Shown here: piece by piece, positions 3,474-13,311 of the stretch
Numbering within the stretch: position 1 is the stretch's first letter
How the letters are laid out: the number at the start of each line of letters is the position of its first letter
Origin: a virus
DNA length: 64,000 bases
IMG/VR virus record: IMGVR_UViG_3300025576_000001
Span: 12,217-76,216 of that record
Strand: one strand, 5' to 3'
Made by a program: the position numbers and the translations under genes
Notes under the pieces: model-generated
Database searches by the model: none
What the model was told of the DNA's origin: nothing
Seen by the model: the letters and a program-made list of their open reading frames with translations, nothing else

Positions 3474-4099
3474 TGCTCGGTGTCTTTCTTATAAGGATTT
3501 TCGCATCCGGCTTCCGACGCAAACGCGAAAAACTTCTTGCTGCGCGAGGGATGACGTAGCTTGCGCAGGGCCATCTCTTGGATCTGGCGAATCCTCTCCG
3601 GGCTCTTACCTAGTGATACGCCTATTTCGTCCAATGTTTTGTCTGCATCTCCGCCAAGCCCAAACCGTTCCGTAAGGACTTCGCTCTCAATCGGACTCAA
3701 GCTCATCAGAGCCTCGCCCATTAGACCCTCTAGCTGCTTGCGTTCCATTTCAAACTGCGGACCAAGTGCATCTCGCCTGAGCGAGTCTGGAATCAGCGCT
3801 CTTATTTCCTCAGCGTCGAATGAGCGCTCTGCCATTGGCTTGTCCACGGCCAGCACCACTTCTGGAAACAGATCCTCGGGCAGAACTCGGTAGAACTTCG
3901 CCAGCAACTGCGCACTCGGGCACCATCCGCTTTTGTCTTTCTTACTGGTGGGGGTACACCTGAGATTCTCCAGACTGACGTATACGCCATACGACATCCC
4001 AACTTTCTCGGACAGTTCGATCGTGCTGAGCCCGAGCGCTTCCCGCCTTGCCTTCAGCAAGTTGTTCTGAAGCTTCACGACCATACGAATCGCTTTCAT
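3470..4099 (-). CDS. XRE-type HTH fused to RpoD-like sigma-70 region 4
   Basis: N-term LKARREALGLSTIELSEKVG..Y..LE; C-term LSPIESEVLTERFGL...TLDEIG..LG.S.ERIRQIQ..ALRKLRHPSRS; no region 2 visible. Confidence 0.85.
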   Translation of the reverse strand: MKAIRMVVKLQNNLLKARREALGLSTIELSEKVGMSYGVYVSLENLRCTPTSKKDKSGWCPSAQLLAKFYRVLPEDLFPEVVLAVDKPMAERSFDAEEIRALIPDSLRRDALGPQFEMERKQLEGLMGEALMSLSPIESEVLTERFGLGGDADKTLDEIGVSLGKSPERIRQIQEMALRKLRHPSRSKKFFAFASEAGCENPYKKDTEH

Positions 4100-4148
4100 C
4101 GGGTTTTCGGGGCGGAAACCCCGTCCTTTAGGGCGGGGAGGAAGTCAA
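4100..4148 (+). mobile_element. 49-bp IS200/IS605 solo-hairpin remnant (LE/RE hybrid, PATE-like)
   Basis: TCAT|CGGGTTTTCGGGGCGGAAACCCCGTCCTTTAGGGCGGGGAGGAAGTCAA; shares the CCTTTAGG hairpin and GAGGA.GTCAA end with the tnpB element's right end; removing it restores an ATGA gene overlap. Confidence 0.8.
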
Positions 4149-4849
4149 GGTAGGCACACGATGTCGTATTCCCGCTTGCCGTCGTAGGGGTTGAACGGAA
4201 CCCCCGTGCGGATGTCATGGCAGCGCGGGTACTCCAGCCAGCACAGTTCCCGGTGTAGCCCCGCGATGGATGAGCCCGCGGCCTCCAGGGCGGCGCCGTT
4301 GACCTCGATGACCATGATGGGCCGGAACCGCAGGATCGTCATGCGGGCGCCCCGCAGTGCCCGAACCTCGTGCCCCTCGACGTCCCACTTGATGAGCGCG
4401 GGCGAAATCCCCAGGCGATCCAGCGGCAGCACCATGATCGGGACGTTGCCACCGGCCTTGATGCGGCTCGCTCCCACGTTGGGGTCTCGGGCGATTTCCG
4501 CAGTGCCTATGTGGTCGGAGAGTCCGGTCTGGTAGAGCTTCACGCTGGGCAGCTCCCCGCAATTGTGCTGGAGGCACGCGAACGACTCGGGCTGCGGCTC
4601 GAACGCATGGACAACGCCGGCCTTGGTGGCGTAGGCGGCCGTGTGGTCGCCGAGACTCGCGCCCGCATCGACCACCACGCCGCCCTCGGGCATCAGGTCC
4701 ATCACGAGCGGGATGAGACCGCACATGTCGGCGTCGAGTCGGTGTTCCTGCTCGATCCACCGGCTCAGGTGCGTGTCTTCCTTCAGGACGGCGATCTGTT
4801 GCTCGCCTTCGAGGCCGGGGATTGTGCCGGTGGTGTGGATGATGGTCAC
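4145..4849 (-). CDS. FkbM-family SAM-dependent methyltransferase
   Basis: VVDAGASLGDH, VHAFEP, LIKWDVEGHE..AL.GA..TI..FRP.MVIE. Confidence 0.9.
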   Translation of the reverse strand: MTIIHTTGTIPGLEGEQQIAVLKEDTHLSRWIEQEHRLDADMCGLIPLVMDLMPEGGVVVDAGASLGDHTAAYATKAGVVHAFEPQPESFACLQHNCGELPSVKLYQTGLSDHIGTAEIARDPNVGASRIKAGGNVPIMVLPLDRLGISPALIKWDVEGHEVRALRGARMTILRFRPIMVIEVNGAALEAAGSSIAGLHRELCWLEYPRCHDIRTGVPFNPYDGKREYDIVCLP

Positions 4850-6396: not shown

Positions 6397-6436
6397 TCGC
6401 GGGCTGGAACCATCACACCCTTCAGGAGAAGAACCA

Positions 6437-7138
6437 ATGTCCAGCACCGTCACGAAAGTCAACACCGTCCGCGACAACCTGAACAGCAATAAGCTCGGCG
6501 TCCAGGCCGATGGGATCGCCAAGGCCCCGCTGGGTGACATCCTGTCGATCCTGCTCAACACCCGCAACCCCAGCGTGACGGTGTCGGGCACGACCGTCGG
6601 CAGCGCCGTCGCGCCGTCGTCCGTCGCGGTCTCGGCCGCCACGGCAGTCTCGCCCGCGTCCGCCGCATATGCGTCGCCCGACCAGACGACCCTGGCGAAC
6701 CTGGCGAACGCCCTGCGGACAGATCTGAACCTGGCCGTGACCGACATCGCCAATATCGGCACGCTGCTGAATCAGGCGCGAGCCGACATCCTGAATCTGC
6801 GGTCGGCCCTCGCGGCTGTCACGACCGGCGGGGTCATCGGCGGCGCGACCGAGACCGGCAAGTCCGTCACGTCCAGTACGGGCGTCTGCGCGGCACTCAG
6901 CCAGGCCCCGACGACCAACGGCCTCATCACCGTCAACGCCACCGCGGGCACCAGCACGGGCGTCAAGACGATCATGACCGACCCGACCCGTCTGCCGAAC
7001 CCCGGCGAAGTCTACTGGGACGGCGGCGTGAACCTGACGTTCAACATCGCCGATGCCGTCACGTCCTGCGACGTGATCTACAGCAAGAGCGACCTGTCCC
7101 AGTCGGCCTCTTGCCTGATGCGCTCGATGCCCGAGTAG
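6437..7138 (+). CDS. putative virion structural / head decoration protein
   Basis: AGGAG RBS; Thr/Ala/Ser-rich; upstream of scaffold and capsid. Confidence 0.6.
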   Translation: MSSTVTKVNTVRDNLNSNKLGVQADGIAKAPLGDILSILLNTRNPSVTVSGTTVGSAVAPSSVAVSAATAVSPASAAYASPDQTTLANLANALRTDLNLAVTDIANIGTLLNQARADILNLRSALAAVTTGGVIGGATETGKSVTSSTGVCAALSQAPTTNGLITVNATAGTSTGVKTIMTDPTRLPNPGEVYWDGGVNLTFNIADAVTSCDVIYSKSDLSQSASCLMRSMPE

Positions 7139-7336
7139 TCCCCGAACCACCTTCAACAATGAGTTTTCTTCGCGCGACATACGCCATCCCCGGATCCACC
7201 GGGGGCGTCTCTGCCGCGCACAACGTGACTCGATACCCCGCGAGCAGCCGCCCGTTGAAGTCGTCACTCGTGACGACGGCGACGATACAGCCGGATGACC
7301 GCGACGTAGACGAGTAGCCCCGACGAGGAGCGAGTC

Positions 7337-8185
7337 ATGGCAACCGAACCAGTAGCAGCAAACCAACCAGCGAACCCACCCGACCCAGCAGCAGCCCCGC
7401 CCGGGGCACCAGCGGCAGCGGCCCCAGCGCCCGCGCAGCCGGCCCAGCAAGGCAAGAACGTCATCCTCCCGAGCCGCGCCTTCACCGAGCGATTGAAGAA
7501 GGCGGAGGAAAAGGGCAGGACGGCGTATCAGGCCGAGCTGGACAAGCAGGCGCAGGAGCGAGGCTTCGCCAACCATGCGGCCATGCTCCAGCACCTGGAC
7601 GCACAGCGAACGACCCGAACGGCACCACGTCCGGCGGCCCCGGCCGCACCGGCGGCAGGTGATCCACCGGCCCCGCCCAAGAATCGCAATGACCGTCAGG
7701 CCATGGCGAAGTACGAGCAGGACAAGGCCAAGTGGAAGCGCGAGCAAGACCGGAAGGACGCCGAGATCCGCGAACAGAAGCGGCTGCGGCGCAAGGCAGA
7801 GAACCGGGCCAACGCCATTGAGGTGAAGGCCACCCTGGAACGCATCGCCCACGGCGTCGGGATCAAGGACACGGATTACGCCGTGACCTTGTTCACGCGC
7901 GCCCACGAAGGCAAGACCGAAGACGAACTGAAGGGGCTCGACGAAGAGGCATTCTTCAAGGGTCTGCGGACACAGCATCCGTATCTGTTCGGCGAAGTCA
8001 CTGTACCGGCCACCACGGGAACGACCGGACCCGTGCCAGGATCGCATGCGGCACCACGACCAGGCGCCACGGCGGCAGCGGCAGGAGCAGCGGGCAAAGT
8101 CGACGTCAGGGAGATGACGAAGCCGGAGTTCGAGGCGTACAAGCGCGCCAGGGGGATCCGAACCGCATCGACCGGGCTGGGGTAA
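7337..8185 (+). CDS. capsid scaffolding protein
   Basis: Pro/Ala-rich linkers, charged coiled coil, HPYLF motif, C-term MTKPEFEAYKRARG; directly upstream of the capsid gene. Confidence 0.75.
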   Translation: MATEPVAANQPANPPDPAAAPPGAPAAAAPAPAQPAQQGKNVILPSRAFTERLKKAEEKGRTAYQAELDKQAQERGFANHAAMLQHLDAQRTTRTAPRPAAPAAPAAGDPPAPPKNRNDRQAMAKYEQDKAKWKREQDRKDAEIREQKRLRRKAENRANAIEVKATLERIAHGVGIKDTDYAVTLFTRAHEGKTEDELKGLDEEAFFKGLRTQHPYLFGEVTVPATTGTTGPVPGSHAAPRPGATAAAAGAAGKVDVREMTKPEFEAYKRARGIRTASTGLG

Positions 8186-8240
8186 CGAGGGGCACGGGGG
8201 CTGACAGGCATCACCACAACCGAGAGAGAAAGAGGAAACC

Positions 8241-9659
8241 ATGGACTTCTCAGTCATTCAGCTAGATCCGACGATCCGAGCCCTCGTGCAAGACAACGCG
8301 CTCATCCGCGAGTTCAAGGACGCGCTGTACCCGCGCAACCTGTTCCGCAGTGAGGCCGCCCCGGTGTTGCAGCCGGGACAAGCCGGTGATCAGTTCATCT
8401 TCACCGGGAACGGCCTGATGGCGCCCTCCACCAATCCGCTGCCTCCAGGGAAGGAGCCCGAGCCGGTTTCGTTCGACAAGGAACAGTGGAACATGCAGCT
8501 CCACCAGTACGCGAACCGCTGCCCCGACACCAGCATGCCGACCAGCATCGTGGCGATCGCGAATCTGTTCACCAACAACGTCCACCAGCTCGGCCTGAAC
8601 GCCGCGCAGTCGCTCAACCGCGTCGTGCGCGATCGGCTCTACAACGCCGGCATGAGCGGATGGACGGTCGCGAACGGCGCCACCGCCTCCGGGACCAGCC
8701 TCCCGGTCATGCGGCTCAACGGCTTCACGACCGCGCGGCGCCCAGACCTGACGGCCGGAAGCCCCGTGCAGTATTCGGCGGTGTCGTCCTCGAATCCGCT
8801 GCCGATCAGCTACATCGGCACCGATGGGAACGTTCACACGGTCAACGTCGTCAACTTCACGTCGCCATTCTCGGGCGACGTGGTCGGCCCCGGCACCCTC
8901 ACGACCGACGTGAGTTTGCCGGCCGCGATCTCGAACCGTGGCGTGATCTGGAGCAACGACGCCACCTACATGGTGCGGAGCGGTGGCGGCAACGGCATCG
9001 ACTCTCTGACGAGCACGACCAGCAACGGGTTTACGTTCGACCTGTTCCGCGCGGCCATCGGTCGCCTGGAAGACAGCAACGTGCCGAAGATGCCGGACGG
9101 CTTCTACCACAGCCACTTCAACAGCTACTCGAAGAACCAGCTTTTCAGCAGTGACGAGAGCCAGAAGCTCCTGACCTCGCTGCCTGACTACTACTGGTTC
9201 AAGGAGTTCGCGCTGGGCGACATCCTCGGAACCCTCGTGTTCCAGGACACCGAGACCCCGCGGTCCAGCACCGTGGCGGGCGGCATCCAGAACGTCTACA
9301 ACGGCGACGCCCGCAAGGGCGAGCAGTTCGGCGGCGAGATGTGGAACGCCAGCAAGCTGGAAGTCCAGCGCCCGATCTTCATCGGCGCCGAGGCGGTGTA
9401 CGAGTACTACGCCGACCTGCGCGGCCTCATCACCGAGGCCGGGCTCAACGGCGAGGTGGGCGACTTCAGCCAGCTCACCAACAACGGCGTGGAAGTCAAC
9501 GCCGACCGCGTGCAGGTCTACCTGCGCGCCCCCGTGAACGTGATGGGCGACCTCGTGACCGGCATCTGGAAGACCATCATGGACTGGCCCTGCAGGACCG
9601 ACGGTGCGACCGGGGATACCGCTCGCTACAAGAGGATCTGCGTCGTCGAGCACGTCTAG
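8241..9659 (+). CDS. major capsid protein
   Basis: 472 aa after the scaffold; QLGLNAAQSLNRVVRDRL backbone-helix-like segment; LEDSNVP..PDGFY..H. Confidence 0.8.
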   Translation: MDFSVIQLDPTIRALVQDNALIREFKDALYPRNLFRSEAAPVLQPGQAGDQFIFTGNGLMAPSTNPLPPGKEPEPVSFDKEQWNMQLHQYANRCPDTSMPTSIVAIANLFTNNVHQLGLNAAQSLNRVVRDRLYNAGMSGWTVANGATASGTSLPVMRLNGFTTARRPDLTAGSPVQYSAVSSSNPLPISYIGTDGNVHTVNVVNFTSPFSGDVVGPGTLTTDVSLPAAISNRGVIWSNDATYMVRSGGGNGIDSLTSTTSNGFTFDLFRAAIGRLEDSNVPKMPDGFYHSHFNSYSKNQLFSSDESQKLLTSLPDYYWFKEFALGDILGTLVFQDTETPRSSTVAGGIQNVYNGDARKGEQFGGEMWNASKLEVQRPIFIGAEAVYEYYADLRGLITEAGLNGEVGDFSQLTNNGVEVNADRVQVYLRAPVNVMGDLVTGIWKTIMDWPCRTDGATGDTARYKRICVVEHV

Positions 9660-9661
9660 TC

Positions 9662-10160
9662 ACGTGCGCGACCTCGGGACCAATCATGTTCGGACCAGGG
9701 ACATGCTCGACACGAACGGCGACGGCGCCGTCGGGCATGTTCCTGTCGAGTTTGCCCTTCGGGGCAATTAAAGGGCCTGGGCTCTTTTTGAGCCGTAACC
9801 ACTCGCGGTCGTGTCGCAGTGGTCTGGCCCGCCAGCGTGGTGGCGGCGCTTCGGCGCCTGCCCATACGAACGCGCTGGATAGCCGCACTTGTCGCCGGAT
9901 GGTCGCGGATACGCGCTCGCTTGGTCTGGTCACTCAGCGAGAGCGCCCGCCTTTGATGGCGAACTCCAACGGGCCTCGTGCCTTGCTGGAGATGTTGTGC
10001 GGCGCTCGGGGAGCACGGAACCCTGCCTGTGGCATCGGAACCGCGATCCCCTCTGGCGGCCCCACTGCTAGTCGGTGGTCGGTGGCTTCGGCCATGACGT
10101 CGGACTCTCGCATGAGCAGAACCCATCGTCGTGGGACAAACGACGTATCTGCACGCGCCG
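9662..10160 (+). ncRNA. candidate large structured non-coding RNA
   Basis: ~550-nt intergenic gap with a 16-bp stem (9696-9711/9730-9745), three C(UUCG)G hairpins and several further stems. Confidence 0.55.
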
Positions 10161-10206
10161 GAGTTCAACGCCCCGCCTCTTTTCGACCAGCAGCAGGAGA
10201 GACCCC

Positions 10207-10590
10207 ATGAGCCTACTGAGCGACAAGGCAGCGCAGCGAGTCGCGGCGACCCGCAAGCCCGCCGAACCATCGAAGACGAGTGAGCCTGCGGCCCCAGCGG
10301 ACCCGCTGGCCGACGTCGTGGTGTCGGCTGAGGAGTTCACGCGGTCCAAGACCGAGGGGCTGGACGTGGTCGTGGACCCGCCACCCACGCCACCCCCTGC
10401 CGCCGAAGAACCGAAGGCCAAGGAGCAACCCAAGCCCACGCGCGTGCGGGTCCTGGAGCCCGGCAAGATCATGCTGGGCGGCTGCATGCAGCGATTCAAG
10501 CGCGGCGCCATTCTGGACCAGCGCCACTACGATCCCGAGCACTTCCGTCAGCTTCTGACGGTTCTCACGACGGAGCCGGTCACGGGGTAG
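10207..10590 (+). CDS. hypothetical virion-associated protein
   Basis: AGGAG RBS; ATG at 10207; Pro-rich N-term. Confidence 0.65.
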   Translation: MSLLSDKAAQRVAATRKPAEPSKTSEPAAPADPLADVVVSAEEFTRSKTEGLDVVVDPPPTPPPAAEEPKAKEQPKPTRVRVLEPGKIMLGGCMQRFKRGAILDQRHYDPEHFRQLLTVLTTEPVTG

Positions 10591-10591
10591 C

Positions 10592-11011
10592 ATGCTGAGC
10601 CCCGCCGAAAGAGTCCGGGTCAAGTACCACCTGGGGTATCCCTTGCTGTCTGCTGTCCCGGCGCTGAACGCCGGCATCCCGGTCTCGACCCCCATGTTGA
10701 GCATCGTGGATCTGGCGATGAACAGCCTTCTGCCCGACGGCGAGCCGATGGTGCGGGAGCAAATCGCCCGCTGCGACCAACTCGACCAGGCCATCATCGA
10801 CGCTCAGATCCGCATGCAGGTCAGCAAGGTCGACGGCGTGGAGATGCGGGAACACGAGACTGACCTCCTCGACGTGGAGTATGCGCGGCAAGCGGCGCGC
10901 CTATCGGACATCCTGCACGCCCCGTTCTATCCGTTCTCGACCCGCTACAGGTCGATGCAGCAGTTGGGGCTTGGTGGACGAGTTCAGACCGGCATGATCG
11001 GAGTCGCCTGA
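10592..11011 (+). CDS. putative head-tail adaptor
   Basis: MLSPAERVRVKYHLGY start; size and position after the capsid gene. Confidence 0.6.
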   Translation: MLSPAERVRVKYHLGYPLLSAVPALNAGIPVSTPMLSIVDLAMNSLLPDGEPMVREQIARCDQLDQAIIDAQIRMQVSKVDGVEMREHETDLLDVEYARQAARLSDILHAPFYPFSTRYRSMQQLGLGGRVQTGMIGVA

Positions 11012-11406
11012 TGTCGATCCCATCGTTCGTCAAGCACTCGGGGGTCGCGGTCAGCCAGGACTGCTCGGGCGGCAACTTCGGCATCGGCCCAATCGACACC
11101 AGCTTCGGCATCACGTGCGCGGCGCAAAAGAGCGGGCAGGACGACGTCGTGAACGCCACCAGCGGGTCGCCCCTGGTGCTCCCACTGGAGAATGTCGCGA
11201 AGGTGCGGGTCCTCATCATCGCCGTCTCGGGCAACAGCGTGACGCTGCAACTGACGAGCGCCGCGGGCAACAACCAGGCGATCCCACTGAGCAGCGGCGG
11301 TATGCAGATTCACTTCGCGCCGACGGTGGGTGACGAGTTCACCGCCATTTCGATTGTCGGCAATGGCGCGACCGTCAATTACTTCATCGCGGGGGACCTG
11401 TCCTGA
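11011..11406 (+). CDS. hypothetical structural protein
   Basis: Translationally coupled; beta-rich composition. Confidence 0.6.
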   Translation: MSIPSFVKHSGVAVSQDCSGGNFGIGPIDTSFGITCAAQKSGQDDVVNATSGSPLVLPLENVAKVRVLIIAVSGNSVTLQLTSAAGNNQAIPLSSGGMQIHFAPTVGDEFTAISIVGNGATVNYFIAGDLS

Positions 11407-11999
11407 TGCTGGCCGACCGCACGACCCCGAGCGACCCGCTGGCCGAAGCGCCGGCTCTGTCGGGGCAAGTGCATCCGGTGCCGGCCGGTCGGCGGACCCT
11501 CATGGAGTCGCTGGTGCCGGCAGTCGATCGCGCCCGTCAGACTCGCAACGACTTGGGGCTCGCGCCGTATCGCGTGTTCCTGGTTCACTGGCGCTGGCCC
11601 GGCAAGCGCGGCGTCGGACGGCCCGTCGAGACTTCGCGAGTCGAGATCCTGCCGACTCCCAGGGTCCAGGACATGCTCAGCACGTCCATGGGGCTGTCGG
11701 CATTCGGCATCACGGAAGCCGGCGGTCTGTTCGTCGATCGCATCAGCCCGCGATTCAGCGAAGCGGACCTGCGCGGCTTGACGCCAGACCTTCTGGACCC
11801 GGTGCGCCCGCAGACGATGAGCGGTCACGCCGAGTTCTTCTGGGAGGTGCGGGAGAGTCGCCGGACCAATCCGCCGACGAAGCCACGGCGCTACACCGTG
11901 AGCGGCGTCCCGATGCTGGCCAAGGGCGGTCTTCAGTGGCGCGTGAATCTGGCGAAACAGGACACGTCGTTTGAAGTCGAGCCCGAGGTGGCGTCGTGA
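11406..11999 (+). CDS. putative head-closure / neck protein
   Basis: Position in the neck cluster; coupled to neighbours. Confidence 0.55.
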   Translation: MLADRTTPSDPLAEAPALSGQVHPVPAGRRTLMESLVPAVDRARQTRNDLGLAPYRVFLVHWRWPGKRGVGRPVETSRVEILPTPRVQDMLSTSMGLSAFGITEAGGLFVDRISPRFSEADLRGLTPDLLDPVRPQTMSGHAEFFWEVRESRRTNPPTKPRRYTVSGVPMLAKGGLQWRVNLAKQDTSFEVEPEVAS

Positions 12000-12610
12000 T
12001 TCGCACGGTCCACCTCCGGGATCTGGGCGGCTACGTGTCGCGCATCCCCAAGGAGCGCCACGCGGCGGCCGTGCGGGGAGTCCGCCGGTGTATGCGGCAG
12101 CGCGGGCGAGTCATCGTCAACGAGGAGATCAACGCCACGAAGCCCCGGCCGCCCGTCGACCGTCGCACCTACGCGAACTCCTGGGAGACGCTGGCGATCG
12201 AGAACGGTTGCCGCATCTACTCGACGGACCCCAAGGCGTCGATCGTGGACCGCGGCCGGCGCCCTGGCGCGGGCGTGAGCCGCGCCGGCATCGAGGCCCT
12301 GATGGGCTGGGTTCACCGGCATGGCATGGATACCGTGTCGGCTCCTGCCGCTCAGCGGGTCGCGCGCCAGCAGATGATGCAGCGGGCGCTGGGGATTCGC
12401 GCCATCACCAAGGCGGTCGCCAAACGTGAGCAAGTCGGCGCAGCGGCCCGTTCCATCGCCTACGCGATCGCGGGCGCCATCAAGAAGCGCGGTCTGTGGA
12501 TGCCGAAGGGCCTACGGGTGTTCGAGCGCGCCAGCCGGAGGATCGTCGAAGAGTGCCGCGCGGCCGTCCACATGGCGATCGCGGGCGCCGAGTTCCAGGA
12601 GCGGCACTAA
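11996..12610 (+). CDS. putative neck protein (HK97 gp10-like)
   Basis: PVDRRTYANSW...RGRRPG...WV...IA.AIKKRG pattern; basic. Confidence 0.6.
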   Translation: MIRTVHLRDLGGYVSRIPKERHAAAVRGVRRCMRQRGRVIVNEEINATKPRPPVDRRTYANSWETLAIENGCRIYSTDPKASIVDRGRRPGAGVSRAGIEALMGWVHRHGMDTVSAPAAQRVARQQMMQRALGIRAITKAVAKREQVGAAARSIAYAIAGAIKKRGLWMPKGLRVFERASRRIVEECRAAVHMAIAGAEFQERH

Positions 12611-13311
12611 TGTACGCCTCCCAATACTCGACCTCGGCCACGATGGACGTGCGGGACGCCTGCGCGCTGGCGCTCTCTCGGGTCATCGAGCGCATCGACA
12701 CTATGATCGGCGGCCAGCGCATCAAGTTCAACCACGTGTTCGACGAGTGGCCGACCACACAGGATCAGTACGACCCACCGGCCGCGTGCATCGTGGCGCC
12801 TCCCGAGTGGGAATACTCCGACAGTGGCGAGCCGAAACTGCTGGAGGACACGGTTCAAAGCGTCGTGACCGCCACGACGGATCCACCCTCCTATGGCCTC
12901 TACAAGACCGCCGAGATGCTCGACCAGTTCGGTCTGCAGATCCGGGCGGGCTCATCGGCCATGCGGTCCATGCTGAAGTTGGCCGTCGAGGATGCCTTCC
13001 AGCTTCGCGAAGCCGCCATGTACCCCGCGGGGCAGCGGTACGGCCTGCAGTTGCCGCTCCCCGAGTATTGGGGGATGACGGCTCGGGCCTCACTGCAGAA
13101 GGGCAGCAACACCGACTCGGAAGACGCGGCCATGCGAAACCAGCGTGAGGCCAGCTTCGTGATTTCCATGCAGGCCCCCAAGGTACAGCTCATGGCCGTC
13201 TGGCCCATGAGCATCACTGTGACCGAAAAGACCCTCACCGGCGACGGGCGACTCATCAACAGCGCCAGCATCACGCCGACCTCCACGCCTCCCACCATGA
13301 CCAGGAGCTAG
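12610..13311 (+). CDS. putative tail terminator / completion protein
   Basis: TAATG overlap; directly before the sheath gene. Confidence 0.55.
   Translation: MYASQYSTSATMDVRDACALALSRVIERIDTMIGGQRIKFNHVFDEWPTTQDQYDPPAACIVAPPEWEYSDSGEPKLLEDTVQSVVTATTDPPSYGLYKTAEMLDQFGLQIRAGSSAMRSMLKLAVEDAFQLREAAMYPAGQRYGLQLPLPEYWGMTARASLQKGSNTDSEDAAMRNQREASFVISMQAPKVQLMAVWPMSITVTEKTLTGDGRLINSASITPTSTPPTMTRS

Follow-up and report, generated by a model that had tools for sequence, protein, structure and literature searches.

Covariation across relatives indicates that the gap behind the major capsid gene of an uncultured phage (9660–10206) carries a multi-domain structured RNA read from the + strand. Our leading explanation, held with moderate confidence, is that this element belongs to a new family of large, multi-domain structured RNAs encoded on the + strand after the capsid gene in a clade of uncultured peat, wetland and soil phages. 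Its untranslated copies would be trimmed, accumulate and act as RNA, and the open frame that runs through it would let ribosomes pass. The window (the whole 64-kb stretch of DNA that was analysed) is part of a 76-kb IMG/VR virus record, and positions are those of the window unless another sequence is named.

Genomic setting of the element

A scaffolding-protein gene (7337–8185) lies upstream of the major capsid protein gene (8241–9659, + strand). The capsid gene was assigned by phrog_1357 (major head protein) and by tblastn to annotated major capsid proteins, including the 'major capsid protein' of Streptomyces phage Kromp; 619 homologues were found. The next gene begins with the ATG at 10207, and thus the gap after the capsid ORF is 547 nt long. 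The original prediction, which was made from the sequence alone, had pointed to a large gap at this place, and that gap, between 9659 and the ATG at 10207, is real. The next gene (10207–10590, + strand) encodes 127 amino acids of no known family and has a GC3 of 0.84. It is the first in a chain of small, tightly coupled head-completion genes. ARAGORN detected no tRNA genes in the 64-kb window, and a consensus scan of the gap found no promoter-like site.

A search of IMG/VR with the capsid returned 80 loci. Using nhmmer, we found the RNA element directly 3' of the capsid stop codon in every relative with a capsid identity of at least 60%, with an extra gene in between in the case of L046. The nucleotide identity of the RNA to the window is 68–83%, about equal to that of the capsid gene (68–78%). 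In L046 (IMGVR_UViG_3300037878_000134), the intervening ORF (3944–4444 of that record) resembles an HNH-type endonuclease, its translation containing CxxC ... HN ... CANCH motifs, and the RNA is intact downstream from 4506.

Covariation supports a + strand fold

Sixteen sequences from 12 lineages were aligned (alignment A3) and folded with RNAalifold, which predicted 117 pairs in 22 helices, 76 of them with compensatory double changes. In this structure 96.1% of the cells are paired, compared with 82.8% in shuffles. Covariation in relatives, which had been proposed as a check on the original prediction, is strong: the 76 covarying pairs compare with 34 ± 4 in shuffles, none of 500 shuffles reached the observed value, and the count falls to 15–22 when the 3' partners are slid by 1–3 columns. 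The covariation score is 0.428, compared with 0.172 in shuffles (again 0 of 500 reached the observed value) and 0.06–0.09 with slid partners. In the paired columns there are 106 G-U cells and 9 A-C cells, and three cUUCGg tetraloops are conserved. Since G-U cells are so much more frequent than A-C cells and the tetraloops are conserved, we read the RNA from the + strand, as had been proposed; the structure itself was predicted on the + strand.

A comparison of folding energy with shuffles had been suggested as a further check. The result is unremarkable on the + strand, with z = −2.0 for 9660–10207 and −1.5 for 9763–10170, and z is −4.3 on the minus strand. With z weak on the + strand and stronger on the opposite one, it is covariation and not energy that speaks for structure.

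The hairpins named in the original prediction are all present where it had placed them, and eight of its ten helices are upheld by covariation across relatives. These are the 16-bp P1 hairpin (9697–9747), three cUUCGg hairpins (9752–9767, about 9841–9862, and 10082–10095), ACCACU/AGUGGU, CCAGCG/CGCUGG, the domain-closing GCCGCAC/GUGCGGC, and GCGCUCGCU/AGCGAGAGCGC, which is the weakest of the eight with 79% paired. The remaining two do not hold in relatives. A crossing pairing of GGTCGCGG with CCGCGATC, which had been read as a pseudoknot, forms 8 of 8 pairs in the window and 3–7 of 8 in 11 other lineages, without compensation. CGTGC/GCACG, which had been thought to join the two ends of the element, forms 0–4 of 5 pairs and is not conserved.

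Domains of the RNA

From 5' to 3' on the + strand, the predicted fold begins with P1 (9697–9747), a long hairpin with a conserved ACACGA internal loop in which CACG is invariant; 8 of its 9 predicted pairs show compensatory changes. It is followed by a cUUCGg hairpin (helix 3, 9752–9767), which covaries (CG:12/GC:4 and others), and by a three-way-junction domain (helices 4–6, 9773–9830) with the invariant loop GGUCGUGUCG, 97–100% of cells paired and nine double-change pairs. Helices 7 and 8 form a bipartite hairpin (9832–9878) with a UUCG tip and a conserved CAUACGAA bulge; helix 7 is 100% paired and 6 of its 8 pairs are double-changed. The central domain (helices 9–15, 9882–10003) is closed by GCCGCAC/GUGCGGC, shows covariation, and contains the invariant loop UGGUC at 9927–9931. 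Next to it lies what we call the core module (10008–10051), in which a GGGGA/UCCCC flanking helix surrounds GCACGGAACCCUGCC-UGU-GGCAUCGGAACCGC; the family consensus is GCAAACCCUGG..CCAUGGAACCGC. The 3' domain (10055–10177) is closed by GGCGG/CCGCC (helix 17) and contains helices 18–22. Its pair 437/556 is CG:8 UA:7, and helices 18, 20 and 22 are rich in double changes. Directly 3' of helix 17 is a conserved U-rich tract (UCUUUUCG, 10178–10185) with nearly invariant T columns, a possible branched terminator or attenuator.

The invariant loop UGGUC is complementary to GACCA (10185–10189), which stands in the next-gene leader just past the U-tract, and GACC(A) is present there in about 8 of 12 lineages. 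UGGUC never varies, so it gives no covariation signal; the two motifs could form a long-range or regulatory pairing. Within 10121–10144, helix 22 has an invariant CCC just before it on the 5' side and an invariant GGG in its loop. These could form a competing hairpin (CCCA/UGGG) or make a tertiary contact, and the sequence of L046 does not support the hairpin.

The loop of helix 18 (CUAGU, 10068–10072; A3 columns 448–452) is a candidate intermolecular kissing loop. In A3, eight lineages have G-CUAG-U, one has G-UUAA-U and two have G-AAUU-U, and the L029-like clade has AUUUU and no palindrome. The palindrome switches amount to only two or three independent events. Switching of one palindrome into another was the argument for intermolecular bridges in OLE and GOLLD (PMC12286853). 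Pairing between two copies is suggested because adjacent bases of a single loop are unable to pair among themselves, yet the palindrome mutates into palindromes. These changes are suggestive of a loop that pairs two RNA copies.

A core module tied to one capsid family

In relatives with a capsid identity of about 50%, the core module is all that nhmmer recovers, and a covariance model of the 5' domains (R1) found only L060 in this group. The module is 44 nt long and sharply bounded, with the layout helix-GCAAACCCUGG(loop)CCAUGGAACCGC-helix. The sequence of the flanking helix differs in nearly every lineage, yet it always pairs; in alignment A6, with 28 lineages, three flanking pairs have 10–15 double changes each. 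A pattern scan of IMG/VR gave 38 loci, and in 30 of them the module lies 180–860 nt 3' of a capsid homologue on the same strand. The capsid homologues upstream of the pattern-matched modules have 37–68% identity. Judged by these alignments and scans, the core module is a hallmark tied to one capsid family across deep divergence.

In five lineages (L110, L112, L113, L125 and L139, with capsids 38–42% identical), the core module lies about 760–800 nt after the capsid gene and not 180–430 nt; the added length could be due to an additional gene or to an RNA that is much longer. The module also loosely resembles the tip of 16S helix 21 (E. coli 604–636; L265:675–707; GUGAAAUCCCCGGGCUCAACCUGGGAACUGCAU), with an A-rich internal loop, a C/G hairpin and GGAAC.GC in common. 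The likeness may be a coincidence, because this rRNA region varies between phyla and the module is invariant.

A metagenome scan with the 18-mer GGTGGCTTCGGCCATGAC returned 80 loci, 75 of which were unrelated coding sequence; the other five were real elements, all from lineages already in our set. In a blastn search of 50,697 GenBank phages the element had no match. The nearest cultured capsid by protein, that of Streptomyces phage Kromp, is 28.8% identical, and the slot after the capsid gene of Kromp holds a real protein gene (GC3 0.90) without an RNA gap. We found no cultured phages carrying the element. A profile search returned only two MAG contigs with a related capsid, from Acidimicrobiaceae and Thermoanaerobaculia.

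An apparently abundant RNA in wetland metatranscriptomes

Part of the window is present in 14 wetland or peat metatranscriptome runs from 11 studies, four of which were compared over 6400–13000. These data are assembled contigs, which have one depth per contig and do not give strand or true ends. In two low-depth runs from different studies, X8 and X9, the RNA is nearly the sole assembled part of the phage. The X8 contig covers 9763–10168 at a depth of 51, with flanks at 0–3 and Illumina adapter sequence at both ends, and the X9 contig covers 9762–10172 at a depth of 11.8, with flanks at 0. The ends of the two contigs agree within 1–4 nt; adapter sequence at contig ends is common in such libraries. 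Both contigs start within the 3' strand of helix 3. Together they outline an apparent stable RNA species of about 406–411 nt (9763–10170, + strand), whose 3' end at 10170 is the last base of helix 20. P1 lies upstream of the apparent 5' end, and no contig covers 9693–9761 in any run, a kind of hole that is not evidence of absence.

In the two other runs the contigs that hold the RNA are longer and deeper. The X1 contig (9859–10910) has a depth of 255, with the capsid contig at 31, and the X3 contig (9894–10836) has a depth of 718, with the capsid contig at 24. Both continue past the apparent 3' end of the RNA, so a discrete end there is tentative. The contigs holding the RNA have 8–30 times the depth of the capsid-gene contigs in the four wetland metatranscriptomes, and the RNA thus appears to be abundant, as had been supposed originally. 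The contig data are a consistent hint of a discrete, very stable RNA of about 410 nt that outlasts the capsid message. The X3 contig is 1338 nt long and matches the window only from 9894 on, its first 395 nt being unlike the window; it is either a chimera joined at a conserved stretch or comes from a co-occurring lineage with a different RNA 5' half.

An open frame crosses the RNA

The original prediction called this region non-coding. That holds in so far as the + frame at 9686–10210 is not protein-like, but the region is not free of ORFs. The pass-through frame extends from the ATG at 9686 to the TGA at 10208–10210, which forms an ATGA overlap with the ATG of the next gene at 10207. Stops summed over 11 lineages number 4, 48 and 50 in the three frames, and distinct stop columns number 3, 15 and 22. 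Before column 468 there are 0 stop columns in the pass-through frame, compared with 10 and 18 in the others; if the frames were equivalent, 0 versus 28 early stop columns would have a probability of about 1e-5. An ATG lies 16–30 nt past the capsid stop in 9 of the 11 lineages, and Shine-Dalgarno-like purines precede the conserved ATG in about half of the lineages. The frame is stop-free right up to the next gene in 7 of the 11, with the ATGA overlap in several. In-frame stops are found in L051/52, L047/48 and L036, and the open frame shifts at its 3' end between lineages.

The substitutions in this frame are not those of a protein-coding gene. GC by codon position is 0.60/0.70/0.64, compared with a GC3 of 0.75–0.91 in neighbouring genes, and column variability by codon position is flat (0.225/0.228/0.213). 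Among codons with a single difference, the synonymous share is 0.336 in the pass-through frame and 0.333 off-frame. The capsid gene, as a control with the same sequence pairs, has a synonymous share of 0.744 and twice as many third-position changes. The amino acid composition of the product equals the random expectation for 65% GC, the product has no match in Pfam or PHROG, and an exact look-up of the 174-aa sequence among 15 billion proteins found nothing. A conserved protein in this region had been named as an argument against a structural RNA. The relatives do share an ATG-started open frame, which the original prediction missed, but they show no selection on a protein. We conclude from these comparisons that the frame is probably translated, or at least must be traversable, and that its product is not under selection.

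Across the wider family, 17 of 28 lineages have this frame as their longest. Over the core, no long frame is open in L110 and L117, and other lineages use another frame, so ribosome transit is not essential to the RNA. On this comparison of lineages the open frame is an accommodation and not the essence of the element.

Two other coding possibilities were rejected. A C-terminal extension of the capsid protein by frameshift or read-through does not fit, since the relation of the frame to the capsid frame varies, with offsets of 16–30 nt in all three phases. A minus-strand ATG ORF (9656–10270, 204 aa) is open only in the window, the other lineages having 1–4 stops; it is a chance ORF, though one that gene callers could list.

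A proposed stable late RNA and its alternatives

Our best guess, by analogy, is a stable late RNA of the ROOL and GOLLD kind. Under this leading explanation, the element would be transcribed together with the late capsid message, the late timing being judged from its place in the head operon, and untranslated transcripts would fold into a compact, nuclease-resistant body. Trimming would leave this body with a 5' end about 10 nt ahead of the first junction and a 3' end at the foot of helix 20. The trimmed body would then accumulate and work as RNA in the manner of ROOL and GOLLD, and its copies would probably associate with one another by means of the palindromic helix-18 loop, perhaps as dimers or multimers. 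Virion assembly, host takeover and a decoy function are candidate jobs. On translated copies, ribosomes that have finished the capsid gene would begin again at AUG 9686, melt the structure and arrive at the overlapping start of the next gene. Because ribosomes would be delivered through the fold to the next gene, the frame would have to stay open without making a useful product.

A bolder form of this idea, which we consider rather unlikely, is a self-assembling, ornate phage RNA nested in the head operon as a translated, non-coding pass-through frame. Translated, it would be a conduit for ribosomes to the head-completion genes; untranslated, it would be a self-pairing RNA that accumulates above the capsid message. 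If this were true, the strict association with a single capsid family would suggest that the RNA takes part in capsid assembly or works beside it.

The main alternative, which we regard as possible though doubtful, is that the element acts purely in cis, as an attenuator and insulator that separates the capsid gene, with its very high expression, from the low-copy head-completion genes. The GGCGG/CCGCC domain and the U-tract would stop most transcription, translation of the frame would melt the domain so that some polymerases and ribosomes continue, and the abundant RNA of about 410 nt would be a mere nuclease-resistant leftover. Terminators after capsid genes are common, e.g., T-phi of phage T7. 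The conserved U-rich tract lies directly 3' of the covarying helix 17, and both are conserved in the clade with at least 60% capsid identity, where every lineage checked has the tract at +158 to +162 from the core. The frame is open up to or near helix 17 and has the ATGA overlap with the next gene. Moreover, conservation extends to P1, helices 3 and 17, and the U-tract, all of them outside the apparent stable species or at its edge, which fits a cis role of the precursor at least as well as a role in trans. However, a terminator needs neither some 400 nt and about 20 helices with invariant loops and junctions, nor a core kept down to about 40% capsid identity. The consensus scan found no simple intrinsic terminator in the gap, the position of the U-tract is not conserved in the group with about 50% capsid identity, and some lineages have no open frame. 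Contigs end at 10168–10172 in two runs and read through in the two others, X1 and X3, where they reach 10836–10910 at high depth.

The two remaining alternatives are much less likely than either the cis-acting attenuator or our leading explanation. A self-processing RNA, or an element of ribozyme or intron origin, that excises itself at about 9762 and about 10170 is improbable. It would account for the close agreement between the contig ends of X8 and X9, to within 1–4 nt in different studies, and for a large RNA with invariant internal loops, and the HNH endonuclease gene between the capsid gene and the RNA in L046 is frequent company of introns. Contig ends, however, are weak evidence for RNA ends. 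No group I or group II intron and no self-cleaving ribozyme matched in Rfam, even at E ≤ 10, and there is no interrupted host gene, since all homologues share the conserved C-terminus of the capsid protein and the next gene carries a start codon of its own. Least probable is an ordinary protein-coding gene (174 aa, 9686–10210) whose mRNA is structured by chance. The conserved ATG, the purines before it in about half of the lineages, the stop-free path to the next gene in 7 of 11 and the overlap of stop and start would all suit such a gene. Against it stand a GC3 of 0.64 that lacks the bias of the neighbours, substitutions without codon-position periodicity, a synonymous fraction at the off-frame level where the capsid control has 0.744, and a composition that is random at 65% GC. 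The in-frame stops in L051/52, L047/48 and L036, the changes of frame at the 3' end, and the lack of any Pfam or PHROG match or of the exact product among 15 billion proteins also argue against a protein.

Comparison with known systems

Bacteria and phages have few RNAs longer than 400 nt with so much conserved architecture, namely rRNA, RNase P, group I and group II introns, OLE, GOLLD, ROOL and raiA. To our knowledge, every such large RNA has so far proved to be catalytic or structurally remarkable. The present RNA offers experimental handles: a species of about 410 nt that is already visible in public metatranscriptomes, an invariant core module of 44 nt as a natural candidate for binding a partner, and a palindromic loop that predicts the formation of dimers or multimers. 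The arrangement also matters, in that the frame appears to be selected open, without selection on its product, for ribosomes that cross an RNA gene within an operon. We found no published description of such an arrangement.

Scanning with Rfam 15 (cmscan) gave no match in the window at the gathering thresholds, and none for 9500–10350 at E ≤ 10 beyond chance miRNA-like matches. The 16 relatives had no match at gathering either, in agreement with the original view that this RNA was not a recognised one. In particular, the models of ROOL (RF03087), GOLLD (RF01998), phi29-type pRNA (RF00044), Mu-gpT-DE and other Rfam phage motifs were matched neither in the window nor in the 16 relatives.

Terminators behind capsid genes, such as T7 T-phi, and translation-coupled attenuation share with the element the same slot, a closing helix with a U-tract, and a path for ribosomes. 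In contrast to them, the RNA is far larger and more conserved than termination needs, the consensus scan was negative, and read-through contigs exist. The sfRNA of flaviviruses is a stable RNA left when an exonuclease stalls on a compact fold (xrRNA). The likeness lies in an abundant sub-transcript downstream of a coding region with apparent ends at the edges of a compact structure; it is an analogy only, since the two RNAs have no homology and the ends of ours are known from contigs only. The pRNA of phi29 self-associates by loop-loop pairing, works on the portal and serves head morphogenesis; it is 120–174 nt long and is encoded at the genome end. Our RNA resembles it in being a phage RNA with a candidate loop for such self-association, and differs from it in lacking an Rfam match, in being larger and in its location after the capsid gene.

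The motifs reported from a large structured-RNA screen of IMG/VR were all 29–151 nt long (PMC10690425), and thus that screen would not have captured this RNA in full. The closest systems by kind are ROOL and GOLLD, which are phage-encoded, hundreds of nucleotides long and abundant, have many covarying helices and multistem junctions, and are of unknown function (PMC5737381; PMC12286853). They usually occur near tRNA genes or in tRNA islands in phages and prophages (PMC5737381). Like them, the RNA described here is large, phage-borne and apparently abundant, with many covarying helices, and the palindrome switching of its candidate kissing loop matches the signature used there for intermolecular contacts (PMC12286853). 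Unlike them, it matches no Rfam model and has no tRNA context, and it is smaller (about 410–520 nt), lies inside the head operon behind the capsid gene and has a maintained open frame running through it.
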